Part shown: positions 4,949 through 26,941 of the stretch, piece by piece
Position numbering within the stretch: the stretch's first letter is position 1
Layout of the letters: the number at the start of each line of letters is the position of its first letter
Source: Jimgerdemannia flammicorona
Taxonomy: Eukaryota
NCBI GenBank assembly: GCA_003990765.1
Contig: RBNJ01000329.1
Location: 1 to 32,914 of the forward strand
Direction: 5' to 3'
DNA length: 32,914 nucleotides
The notes under the pieces: generated by a model
Databases searched by the model: none
What the model saw: only the letters and a program-made list of their open reading frames with translations
Told to the model about the DNA's origin: nothing
Translations under genes and position numbers: made by a program

Positions 4949-5392
4949 TCACTTGAACTCCCAGGCTTCTATGATTTGTATCTTCTTGTACTATACAATT
5001 TGTGTCATTATATTCTTCCAATTGTACCTCTTGATGTATCTAAAATCTTCTGGAACTACTTCTCAGAAATGGGGTAAAGCAGCCTCATTATCTTTGAATA
5101 GCTTATTGACTCATTTAGCAATTGTAATCTGAGAGTGAGAGAGCTGGCACTCTTTGATCCAATCTTCTTTTCCCATTTCTGGTCATTAATTCAGTAGCTG
5201 TCCTAACTTGAAGTATTCTTGAAACTCTGTCCAATTCTGGTAGGTCTTGAAGTGTGAAATTCATGACAGATATATCTATACTATACTTTGGATTCTGTCA
5301 TAAGATTCCTCTATCATGGGTGGCTTGATAGTATACCATTATCTTTCTATGACTTGTTGTATAGTACTGGTGATCTTGAGAGCTGTGGTCAT
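4949..5392 (-). pseudogene. Third ORF (ORF3) of element A, ~147 codons, unknown function
   Basis: ATG at 5392 just after the pol stop; single frame with only stop-codon lesions: MTTALKIT...QEYFKLGQLL...ITIAK*VNKLFKDNEAALPHF*EVVPEDFRYI...EFK*. Confidence 0.7.
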
Positions 5393-5402
5393 ACTTCATT
5401 GA

Positions 5403-23550: not shown

Positions 23551-26428
23551 AAGAAGAAAGTACATCACCTTTAAGTCAACCCCCTCAAAAAGAATGTTCC
23601 CCGGTAAGTATACTGCTAACTAGTCAAACTATACAAGAATCTCATCCTGGAGCCTGGAGAGCAAACCACCTTCAAAATCTTTGCACCGCCTGACCCCAGA
23701 AACCTCTTCTTTGAACCCAATAAAGATATCTTACACCTGAATATAGAAGGACACACATTCCTCAACAAGATGAATCCAGTACACTCCTGAGCAACCAACC
23801 AAAGTTGGGAAACTATCATCTTGCTGAAAGGAACTATTATAGAACATCTGGTACCCTTTCTCAACCGAACTCACAGAGAAGTTTATGAACTAAACTTATC
23901 AGGAAAAGGCAAAAGATCCTAGAAGAAAGAAAAGGCCCCTCTGTGACCCAGGAGACAGTGAAGCCTTCCACCAATATTGGAGAAGAATTGATACCCCAAC
24001 AATGGCAACAACTAGTAGAACTCCTCAACAAATATCAAGATATCTTTACTACCAATTATAGCAACCTGCTATATAACCCATTATATCACCACAGCTAAAT
24101 ACAGAAAACACAACACCCATCTGGCAGAAACCCTATAGAATACCCCATTACTTAAAAACATTTGAAAAGGAGCACATTCAAGAACCCTTAGACAATGGAG
24201 TCATCTGACCCTCTACCAGCCCCTGGGCCAGCCCTATACTTATTGTACCAAAGAAAAGAGGATGGAGACTTTGTGTAGACTATAGAAAGCTCAATTTAGT
24301 TACTGAAAAGGATGCTTATCCTTTGCTCAGAATTGATGACCTCCTGGACTAGTTACAAGATACTCAATACTTCAGTAATATAGACCTTTTTGCAGAATTC
24401 CACAAGATTCACATGGACCCAAAAGACATTCAAAAGACAGCCTTTCTTGCTCTAGGAAAACTGTTTAAATACCTCTGAATGTTCTTTAGACTTTGCAATG
24501 CACCCCCCATCTTCCAGAGGATGATGAATTCAGTCTATGTCCCCTTGATCCACTACTGTCTGATTGTATATATAGATGATTCTAACATCTATTTAGCAAA
24601 TTTCAAGGAATACCTACACTATCTAGAAGAATTCTTCAAGCTCACCCACAAGAACCACCTGAGACTCAATGCTAAGAAATGCTACTTTGGGAAACAGAAA
24701 CTTGAATTTCTTAGATTCATAGTTTCAAAAGAAGGAACCCATATAGATCCAAAGAAAACCAAGAAGATTAACAATTGGTCAGTACTCCAGACCCTGAAGG
24801 AAACCCTATCATTCCTGATATTAGTGTCCTACTACAGAAGGTTTATCAAGGACTTTGCCCAAATTACTGCCCCAATTCGGATTCTTCTCAAGAAAGAAGT
24901 ACCTTACAAATGGACAGAATCACAAGAGAAAGCTTTCAAAGAACTCAAGCACCACATGACCACAGCACCAATCCTCATCTGCCCCAATCTACAGAAGCTA
25001 TTTATCTTATATACAGATGCCTCCAAAGATGGCCTAGAAGTAGTTATAGCTCAAGAAGGACCTGACCAATAGTACTATGTGATAGCTTATACAAGCTGAG
25101 CTATCAATCAGCAGCAGATGAACTATAGTAGCACCAAACTGGAATACCTTGCAGTTACATGGGCAGTCACTCTGTTCAAACATTATTTTATCAGAAAAAG
25201 GTTCACCCTGATCACAGACCATACAGCCCTCAAATGGCTATTCAACTGCAAGGAACCCACTGGAATCCTAGCCTGCTGGATCCTTATCCTCTAGGATTAC
25301 AAAATCACCATCATCCACAAGACAGGAAAAGCTTACAACAATATTTATGTACTTTCCTGCCAGCCCCAATGAACCAGAAGAAGGGTGTCCTAAGGAACTA
25401 CACCCTAAAGGAAGCTCCTCAGACCATCAAGGCACAAGAATATCTCATTTAAAAAGAACACCAGAAAGCTCATCAAGGACTAGCAAACATAGAAAAAAAG
25501 TTGTAAACAATATACCAATATTGGTCTAATCTCAGAATATAAGTTCGGGATATACTCAAGAAATGTGATACCTACCAGAAGTACTAAGGAAGAAAGAACT
25601 ACCAAGCACCACTGCAACCAATCATACCACCAGACAATATCTTTCAGAGATAGAGAGTAGATGTAATTGGATCTCTACCAGTTATACCAAGAAGAAATAA
25701 GTATATCCTTATATTTGTGAAATATCTAACTAAGTGGCCCAAGGCTTTCCCAATGGAAATCACAGATGCCTTAACCATTGTAGGCCTTCTCCATGGACTC
25801 ACCCTCAGATATGGACCCCCAGAAGAACTCATCTCTGATTGAGACACAGAATTCATCAACAACATAATTATAAGTTATGTCAGAATTTACAAGATCCATC
25901 TCAAATGAACCACATTATATCACCCCCAGATCAATGGCATGACAGAAAGAATGAACCAGACCATTAAGAAAGAACTTGCCTGAGTTAATCCTACTAACTG
26001 GGACCTCTGCTTATCTGAGATCCTATGGGAAATTTGGAACACCCCTGCTATCTCTACCAAATAAAAGCCATTCAAAATGATATTTACTAAGGAAAACAGA
26101 ACTGCTGACCATGAGAATCTCGGAGACCTCCTCAAGAAGACAGAACAGTTACATAATCAAGCCTGAGCTCAGATTATCAAAGCCCAAGAAAGACAAAAGA
26201 AGTACTATAACTAGAAACAGAAAGATCAGAAGATTAAGATTGGAGATCAAGTACTAGTTTGGAGAAGCATGATTGAAACGAATTTTGCCACCAAACTGGA
26301 GCCCAAATGGGAAGGACTTTATTTTGTACACAACATCAGAGGAACCAGTATCTATTTAAGAAGCATAGATGGATAGACCCTCAGGACACTAGTATATATC
26401 AACTGCCTCAAGATATATCTCTCTTATC

Positions 26429-26941
26429 ATGAACCAGACAATTGACCAGCACCTCCAGACCCTTGTTCTGAGTTCATTCCAATCACTTCCAGTTTCCCTT
26501 CTACAATTCCAACAAGCCAACAGAAACCCCCTTCAGCGAATCCAGACCCATCAAGAGAACCTCACCTTGGCCAGATATTTACTACAAGTCCACTAGCTGC
26601 AGGCCTACTATGCAATTGGAGAACAGTTGCAGAACCTCCCAGCAGCAGACCTGACCTACATCAGAAACTCTACTGGTCTCACCCAGAAAAATACCACTGC
26701 TGCAGACAGATTATACACAATCTACAAATGAAATGTCCCAGCATTGATACAGGTACAATTCCTTCTGAATGACATTCAAAACATGAACCCTGCCACCTAC
26801 TGGAGCATCATCAACTATATTGAGATCCTATTTCCAGAGGAAGAAGAAGAACCTGTTGAATAGAGTGACTCTGATCCAAATGAAGATACTGGTTCAGATA
26901 TTGATATCAAAGATGCTTATGCATATTGGAATGATGACTAA
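26429..26941 (+). pseudogene. Third ORF (ORF3) of element B, ~170 codons, acidic tail
   Basis: ATG overlaps the pol end; single frame MNQTIDQHL...LQAYYAIGEQL...TAADRLYTIYK*NVPALIQV...FPEEEEE...WNDD* with three internal stops. Confidence 0.75.

Follow-up and report, generated by a model that had tools for sequence, protein, structure and literature searches.

To our knowledge, few of the extra genes carried by long terminal repeat (LTR) retrotransposons have an assigned function, and those encoded on the sense strand are mostly env-like. Here we focus on one such gene, an open reading frame (ORF) termed ORF3, which lies between the integrase and the 3' LTR of two decayed Gypsy elements, A and B. 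Both are located in a stretch of 32,914 nucleotides (nt) from Jimgerdemannia flammicorona (Eukaryota; assembly GCA_003990765.1, contig RBNJ01000329.1, positions 1 to 32,914), which is referred to below as the window. ORF3 is a new family within a known class, that of the additional ORFs (aORFs) of retrotransposons, and as such it is no surprise in kind.

The aORFs situated between pol and the 3' LTR have been reviewed for plants, with Grande, RIRE2, Retand and PvRetro13 as antisense cases (PMC7264820). As described there, the plant aORFs share with ORF3 their position and a conservation within families which suggests a role in the life cycle of the element; by the same description, to which the comparison is confined, they are antisense, whereas ORF3 is encoded on the sense strand and overlaps the integrase stop codon (PMC7264820). 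The sole fungal example of an extra gene that emerged from the literature search is brtn, an antisense gene of the Boty-like Gypsy elements of Botrytis and Sclerotinia (Zhao et al., 2011, as cited in PMC8365987 and PMC7264820). It resembles ORF3 in being an extra gene located towards the 3' end of a fungal Gypsy element, but the descriptions in these two sources set it apart, since it runs antisense to gag-pol and ORF3 runs in the sense direction in every element considered here.

Other described elements resemble A and B in their enzymatic domains. A dUTPase located between protease and reverse transcriptase (RT) is described for fungal Gypsy elements such as PosPlaTy3-5, with examples from Postia and Phanerochaete and the element Tmt1 of Tuber, and the same work draws an unspecified "add. 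ORF" for some fungal Gypsy elements (PMC2864245). The text of that source specifies neither which element bears the ORF nor its sequence. Tmt1 is described as chromodomain-bearing (PMC12581995), and in this it differs from the elements studied here. In bdelloid rotifers, elements with a dUTPase between protease and RT carry many types of ORF3 (PMC5408684). The ORF3 protein is not described in the texts found on dUTPase-bearing and fungal Gypsy elements, Tmt1, brtn and additional ORFs; Figure 3 or the supplement of PMC2864245 might show something similar. In terms of function, a described case for comparison is CERV, encoded by the Gypsy element Cer1 of Caenorhabditis elegans, which serves the nuclear export of genomic RNA (PMC10309623). 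As a retrotransposon protein other than Gag or Pol that acts on the RNA of its own element, CERV offers a working model for a small, non-enzymatic ORF3 product, with the difference that the host belongs to another kingdom and that the likeness is one of description, not of sequence or fold (PMC10309623).

An earlier note on this DNA, made from its letters alone, had pointed to an ORF of 150-170 codons downstream of the integrase in A and B and had interpreted it as a conserved accessory gene of a dUTPase-bearing Gypsy lineage. Both ORFs are found, in B at exactly 26429-26941, and in A at 5410-4949 rather than at 5392-4949 as the note had it. The interpretation, too, is supported, namely by intact relatives, by the context of the gene in a near-intact element, by similarity between the A and B types and by the signature of purifying selection. 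On these grounds we consider it likely that ORF3 is a real, selectively maintained accessory gene shared by elements A and B.

In element A, which lies on the minus strand, the frame following the integrase (5455-4910) reads as a recognizable protein when its ten stops are replaced by X. Nine of these are premature stops within ORF3; the native TGA is kept at 4951-4949, and the start codon is lost, with ATA in place of the ATG found in the near-intact relative L001. The A copy scores 184 bits against a hidden Markov model (HMM) of intact A-family relatives and is 61% identical to the ORF3 of L001 over 153 amino acids (aa; tblastn). About 40 nt downstream of the stop codon at 4949 follow the polypurine tract AGGAGAAAG and the LTR, which begins at 4908. 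In element B, on the plus strand, the corresponding frame (26396-26980) reads as protein with six stops. Three of these, at codons 56, 101 and 145, interrupt ORF3 prematurely, at positions where relatives have Q, R or W, and W. The B copy scores 235 bits over 26429-26938 against an HMM of intact B-family relatives. Its ATG (26429) falls within the final five codons of the integrase (stop at 26443-26445), an overlap of 17 nt in the +1 frame, and its TAA (26939) is located 40 nt before the 3' LTR. The earlier attribution of the stops to C>T changes holds in B, where all three can be reached by C>T or G>A, and only partly in A, where four of the nine require nothing but C>T or G>A from the L001 codon and the other five need further changes as well. 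At the position of the L001 integrase stop, the A copy of the window reads Q and continues for 24 codons.

Intact relatives of both types exist in protein databases. A word-indexed search with the A reading returned ten candidates, seven of which match; they are 107-153 aa long, with an identity of 53-70% and E values of 1e-38 to 1e-53. For the B reading, 1.84 billion representatives were searched exhaustively with HMMER, which gave five proteins at E<=1e-3. With a joint profile, 22 of 2609 scored candidates, drawn from a word-indexed set of 5.8 billion proteins, were matched, all of them 81-183 aa in length and each belonging to either the A or the B family; scans of IMG/VR with both family profiles yielded no locus. 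Together with further cluster members, these 22 relatives place ORF3 in several copies and families. At full length, the A-type protein (MANNRST…EAWEFE) has 153 aa and the B-type protein (M[TN]QRID…AYAYWNDD) 169-172 aa, the latter reaching 183 aa where it is extended upstream. Starts and ends are conserved within the families, the frames are open over their full length at 58-76% identity on several independent contigs, and both families have the ATG at a conserved, corresponding position, which is exactly where most database relatives begin.

The genomic context of an intact copy is provided by L001, a metagenome contig of 6479 nt which holds a near-intact A-family element in the order gag, protease, dUTPase, RT, RNaseH, integrase and ORF3. 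Its gag-pol ORF of 1258 aa comprises a zinc knuckle (CCHC), protease, dUTPase, RT and RNaseH. The integrase is spread over two further open pieces. ORF3 is intact and encodes 153 aa (5795-6256); its start overlaps the integrase by 44 nt in the +1 frame, and it ends 40 nt before a polypurine run and the start of the LTR (near 6297); the polypurine motif is of the same class as that preceding the LTR in A. The start codon stands in the context ACCATGG, which we take to match the Kozak consensus, and no antisense ORF of at least 80 aa is present in the ORF3 region of L001. In L001, A and B alike, ORF3 is thus located on the sense strand between pol and the 3' LTR and overlaps the end of the integrase in the +1 frame. 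Little sequence follows the last conserved block of the L001 integrase, and in none of the three elements is the integrase followed by a chromodomain. The elements hosting ORF3 are related Gypsy elements that bear a dUTPase between protease and RT and are devoid of a chromodomain. As a side observation, the integrase of L001, which is otherwise well kept, is split, with open pieces at 843-4619, 4516-5076 and 5425-5838.

Whether the frame is maintained at the protein level was assessed on a single DNA pair, the ORF3 of L001 and that of window A, which are 72% identical and align without gaps. C>T and G>A changes abound in the window A copy, and the analysis was therefore based on the remaining classes. 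Among the transversions, 16 are synonymous (38%) and 26 non-synonymous, compared with a neutral expectation of 14% synonymous (binomial p=1.2e-4), and they are distributed 14/4/24 over the three codon positions. The A>G and T>C changes comprise 20 synonymous and 5 non-synonymous cases. This is the pattern expected of a frame that is translated and kept by purifying selection, with a dN/dS of roughly 0.3 on the transversions of this one pair, rather than a value near 1.

The relation between the A and the B type becomes apparent mainly from the intact relatives. The motifs which the earlier note had picked out by eye do align between them: the relatives P0003 (A type) and P0011 (B type) match with a BLASTP E of 5e-5 over the motif region (YFKLGQ/YYAIGQ … AKRIHKLF/TKRIHALY), and the best cross-family pair reaches 5e-7 with 37% identity over 57 aa. 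The decayed copies of the window do not by themselves demonstrate these shared motifs. Against 5000 shuffled decoys, the HMM of the B family gives 8 of 11 A members a score higher than any decoy (18.7 bits for the best member, 10.4 for the best decoy); with the HMM of the A family, this applies to 3 of 11 B members (13.0 versus 10.7 bits). When the ORF3 of L001 is compared with the whole window by tblastn, B is found at 26597-26758 (E=5e-4) and nothing else outside A. A joint MAFFT alignment of the two families is collinear from start to end, including a C-terminal acidic motif, E-x-W or L-E-W. Taken together, these comparisons suggest, with modest but repeated significance, that A-type and B-type ORF3 are homologous. 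Cross-family identity of ORF3 is 13-21%, whereas the L001 proteins are 41% identical to B over 441 aa of RT-RNaseH and 43% identical over 100 aa of the integrase C-terminus, which agrees with a single ancestral gene and an evolution more rapid than that of pol.

The encoded protein is predicted to be non-enzymatic, all-helical and 150-170 aa long. No known domain was detected: ORF3 and its relatives give no Pfam match above the cut-off, with HTH_Tnp_Mu_2 matched below it in 2 of 21 members (E=0.031), and a sequence profile run against the PDB retrieves only a designed helical protein (E=0.59). ESM Atlas contains no usable relative of the A or B protein, and a cellular homologue was found neither among the 1.84 billion representatives nor among the 2609 scored candidates nor in Pfam. 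AlphaFold2 with a shallow A-family alignment modeled the A protein at a mean confidence (pLDDT) of 49, and with the joint alignment of 21 sequences it gave an all-helical best model of the B type at a mean pLDDT of 70. In this best model most 10-residue blocks of the core reach 79-88, residues 71-80 reach 61 and the tail is disordered; a helix of 36 residues is followed by four or five short helices and the disordered tail. The first shared motif forms the end of the long helix; a loop of 11 residues separates it from the next helix, which contains the second motif. The model was not accompanied by a fold match, since Foldseek retrieved no PDB entry at E<=1e-3 (best row Spo0J, E=0.55) and an exhaustive VIA-align comparison gave a best Z of 5.1 on generic helices, which is background for helical models.

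In both families the core, comprising the first 130 residues, is basic (pI 8.6-10.3) and contains conserved hydrophobic and aromatic positions. Invariant polar residues suggestive of catalysis are absent from the joint alignment, with the exception of one histidine. The B type ends in a tail of about 40 residues with conserved W and Y (…LEWSD…AYAYWNDD) and a net charge of -19 to -20, determined on three full-length B members by summing the last two 30-residue blocks; the A type has a short acidic end of 6-7 residues, EAWEFE. A membrane helix usually has a Kyte-Doolittle mean of at least 1.6 over its span. In six full-length members the maximum 19-residue mean is 0.19-1.36, and no membrane segment is found; with a length of only 150-183 aa, the protein is unlike an env, as the earlier note had maintained. 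It was also right that ORF3 is not a chromodomain: Pfam Chromo is matched in no frame of A, B or the truncated second A-family copy A2 (E<=0.01), nor in ORF3 and its relatives (E<=10, and E<=1 in a further scan). The note's guess at a nucleic-acid-binding or anti-silencing factor fared less well, as no helix-turn-helix or other fold was matched above cut-off or background and only the basic core is compatible with nucleic-acid binding.

How ORF3 might act can be outlined conditionally. Translation would proceed from a subgenomic transcript, either spliced or internally promoted, rather than as a fusion with Pol; such a message is most likely needed, given that about 5 kb of genomic RNA precede the ATG and that the integrase stop comes only after it. 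The product would be a non-enzymatic, trans-acting helper of the element, either a regulator or an adaptor, a role favored by the layout of a basic helical core and an acidic aromatic tail. The core would bind the LTR DNA or the genomic RNA of the element, and the tail with its tryptophan would draw in the host machinery of transcription, export or chromatin. A comparable arrangement is known from Tas/Bel1 of foamy viruses, which is encoded between the structural and enzymatic genes and the 3' LTR and combines a nucleic-acid-binding part with an acidic C-terminal activation region. B-type ORF3 resembles it in layout only; the two share no sequence similarity, and in the A family the acidic end is confined to its 6-7 residues. 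By this analogy, the elements could be "complex" retrotransposons and ORF3 a so far undescribed family of trans-acting regulators in the manner of Tas, Rev or CERV, with a subgenomic message of its own. We put this forward as a tentative and rather doubtful possibility. About equally open are a helper of RNA export or packaging, as suggested by the analogy with CERV of Cer1, and a cofactor of integration targeting which would replace the missing chromodomain.

Several points weigh against a maintained gene of this kind. The two window copies, compared directly, give a BLASTP E of 14 and in a register different from that of the motifs noted earlier; hhalign relates the two families at an E of about 1e-3 with a probability of only 21-23%, and the detectable similarity is limited to about 55-60 residues. 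Selection was tested on a single pair of DNA sequences, one of which is heavily mutated, and the first 44 nt of the tested frame also encode integrase. All relatives originate from environmental (metagenome) assemblies of JGI or ENA, and the count of intact copies is biased because protein databases hold called ORFs only. The fold is uncertain, with pLDDT values near 50 in the other four of five B-type models and in the A model. With respect to function, the A family has no long acidic tail, on which the analogy with activators leans, and no sequence or structure match in Pfam or the PDB, or with Foldseek or VIA-align, backs any specific role.

The low cross-family identity, together with the BLASTP and hhalign values just given, could mean that the two ORF3 types have no common origin and entered the elements separately at one and the same position, with motifs that agree by chance or convergence. 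We think this improbable, because several independent tests (BLASTP, tblastn and HMMs against shuffles) agree on the register, because both types have in common their size, position, +1 overlap, helical pattern and C-terminal acidic tryptophan motif, and because the host elements are themselves related, as their RT-RNaseH shows. Still further from probable, in our judgment, is that the ORFs are non-functional frames of the untranslated 3' region, open by chance or through constraints on the RNA such as the polypurine tract, packaging or transcript signals. Such frames would agree with the lack of a known domain and with the low-confidence structure models, but they do not account for the synonymous excess and the 14/4/24 pattern of the transversions, for full-length openness at 58-76% identity with conserved start and stop on several contigs, or for the conserved hydrophobic and aromatic positions of the core.

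The +1 overlap with the integrase end in L001, A and B also invites the reading that ORF3 is a C-terminal extension of Pol or integrase, produced by +1 ribosomal frameshifting at the overlap, and in the B-family members P0020, P0022 and P0010 the frame is indeed open for 19-43 codons upstream of the usual start. This is unlikely in view of the ATG which is conserved in both families, stands in ACCATGG in L001 and marks the exact beginning of most relatives. In addition, no fused form was found among 8000 longer scored candidates (343-2000 aa), which is weak evidence, and inspection of the L001 overlap by eye revealed no +1 slippery heptamer of the Ty1 or Ty3 type, as these motifs are known to us. 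LTR retrotransposons can further capture diverse ORF3s, as in the dUTPase-bearing elements of bdelloids (PMC5408684), and ORF3 could accordingly be a fragment of a host gene with no role for the element. We regard such a capture as quite unlikely, given that no cellular homologue turned up in any of the protein sets searched and that ORF3 is retained in two pol lineages which are only 41% identical, a retention that implies long co-inheritance with the element. A maintained accessory gene shared by A and B hence remains the reading that we prefer.

A small protein that appears to be selected, has no known domain and occurs in two pol lineages at this distance is a candidate for an element-encoded regulator or host-interaction factor. 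It occupies the place where related elements, the chromoviruses, carry the chromodomain that targets chromatin. Ordinary annotation misses ORF3, because it sits in masked elements, is present in decayed copies and is not covered by any Pfam model; with a profile of the 21 intact sequences, others could detect and test it.

The window consists of a nest of decayed LTR retrotransposons, the features of which are listed in Table 1. The domains of A and B were assigned with Pfam on frames read with X at stops, the matches being converted to window coordinates, and by tblastn with the L001 proteins. Element A is a Gypsy element with protease, dUTPase, RT, RNaseH, integrase and a zinc knuckle, scattered across two frames. 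Element B, likewise Gypsy, shows dUTPase, RT, RNaseH and integrase; a protease was not found in it by Pfam.

Table 1. Coordinates of the retrotransposon features in the window (for minus-strand domains, in the direction of reading).
Feature	Position	Strand	Basis or remark
3' LTR, element A	4471..4908	-	86% identical to 10598-11055
Polypurine tract, element A	4909..4917	-	AGGAGAAAG, directly before 3' LTR
ORF3, element A, decayed	5410-4949	-	Alignment to intact relatives; 153 codons + native TGA
gag-pol remains, element A	5370..9728	-	Pfam, tblastn of L001 proteins
CCHC, element A	~9728-9681	-	
Protease, element A	~9103-8858	-	
dUTPase, element A	~8377-8003	-	
RT, element A	~7721-7260	-	
RNaseH, element A	~7073-6687	-	
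Integrase zinc domain, element A	~6439-6272	-	
Integrase core, element A	~6173-5973	-	
Integrase C-terminus, element A	to 5370	-	
5' LTR, element A	10598..11055	-	86% identical to 4471-4908
D, possible frame-shifted ORF3 relic, closest to A family	16792..17393 (about)	-	
5' LTR, element B	17860..18752	+	83% identical to 26979-27824
pol remains, element B	23172..26445	+	Pfam, tblastn with L001 proteins
dUTPase, element B	23172-23547	+	Two frames
RT, element B	~24245-24715	+	
RNaseH, element B	~24911-25300	+	
Integrase zinc domain, element B	~25435-25584	+	
Integrase C-terminus, element B	26131-26445	+	
ORF3, element B, decayed	26429-26941	+	170 codons + native TAA (26939)
3' LTR, element B	26979..27824	+	TG at 26982; 83% identical to 17860-18752
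Truncated second A-family copy (A2)	27822..30100	+	Inverted repeats, Pfam, tblastn

The LTRs of element B enclose 8.2 kb, an unusual length. A proline/serine-rich stretch is located at 21900-22400, between the gag-like part and the dUTPase, and in the same area ORFs overlap on both strands (21981-22340 minus, 22006-22395 plus). The copy A2 spans the part from the dUTPase to the integrase zinc domain and breaks off before ORF3, so that it carries none.

The claim of ORF3 in three different LTR elements is weak for the third case, D. Its two motifs lie on the minus strand at 17103-17123 and 16943-17032, in two different frames, and no pol or integrase domain is detectable by Pfam or tblastn in 11000-17900; nor is D adjacent to the LTR of a recognizable element. 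Profile similarity is seen between A and B and is marginal for D, where HMM matches of the window-wide search are at chance level (i-E 0.05-0.23). In a targeted HMM search, three weakly matching pieces of D are collinear with the A-family profile. When D is read with the frame corrected and an X placed at the shift, its scores are 11.9 and 14.5 bits, values that 1 and 0 of 3000 shuffles, respectively, also attained, but about 40 choices of the junction had gone before. That D is an ORF3 relic is therefore possible, with a chance somewhat better than even. It sits in a unique piece of 1.5 kb (16059-17598) between copies of a repeat of about 300 nt, an arrangement which would fit a deleted, non-autonomous derivative. 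The repeat units of about 300 nt form a tandem array at 14778-16058, and a further copy (17599-17860) directly precedes the 5' LTR of B.

Decay by transitions is a common trait of these elements. The differences within the LTR pairs are C/T or G/A transitions in 43 of 45 cases in A and in 89 of 100 in B. The classical dinucleotide indices of repeat-induced point mutation, by the criteria known to us, are not reached, with TA/AT at 0.84-0.87 and (CA+TG)/(AC+GT) at 1.4-1.5. Copies of the A family are also present in soil metagenome contigs of 14 studies and in the runs of a single organism; no RNA run is among those listed for L001. In all four runs compared (X1, X2, X4 and X9) the differences from L001 are mostly C>T or G>A, as in X4 with 348 C>T and 267 G>A against 122 T>C and 106 A>G, which indicates that the same transition decay acts on the A family elsewhere. 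These four runs consist of DNA contigs, and their summed depth is lower over 5833-6264 of L001, a dip on which no weight is placed.

The remainder of the window is made up of repeats and flanking DNA. Outside the elements, the flanks of the window contain no Pfam domain on either strand, and the same holds for the very AT-rich repeat DNA between A and B (11056-17859). The latter includes, at 13954-14403, a tandem array of a 46-nt unit in at least seven copies. A direct repeat of about 1.3 kb, 86% identical between its copies, is found at both ends of the window (127-1362 and 31153-32435); no Pfam domain is present in it on either strand, and it may represent another repeat family or an element into which the nest inserted. 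Both flanks of A (3612-4470 and 11056-12639) are copies of one very AT-rich repeat family with 74-83% identity, partly duplicated on the right side, and element A appears to have inserted into this repeat.

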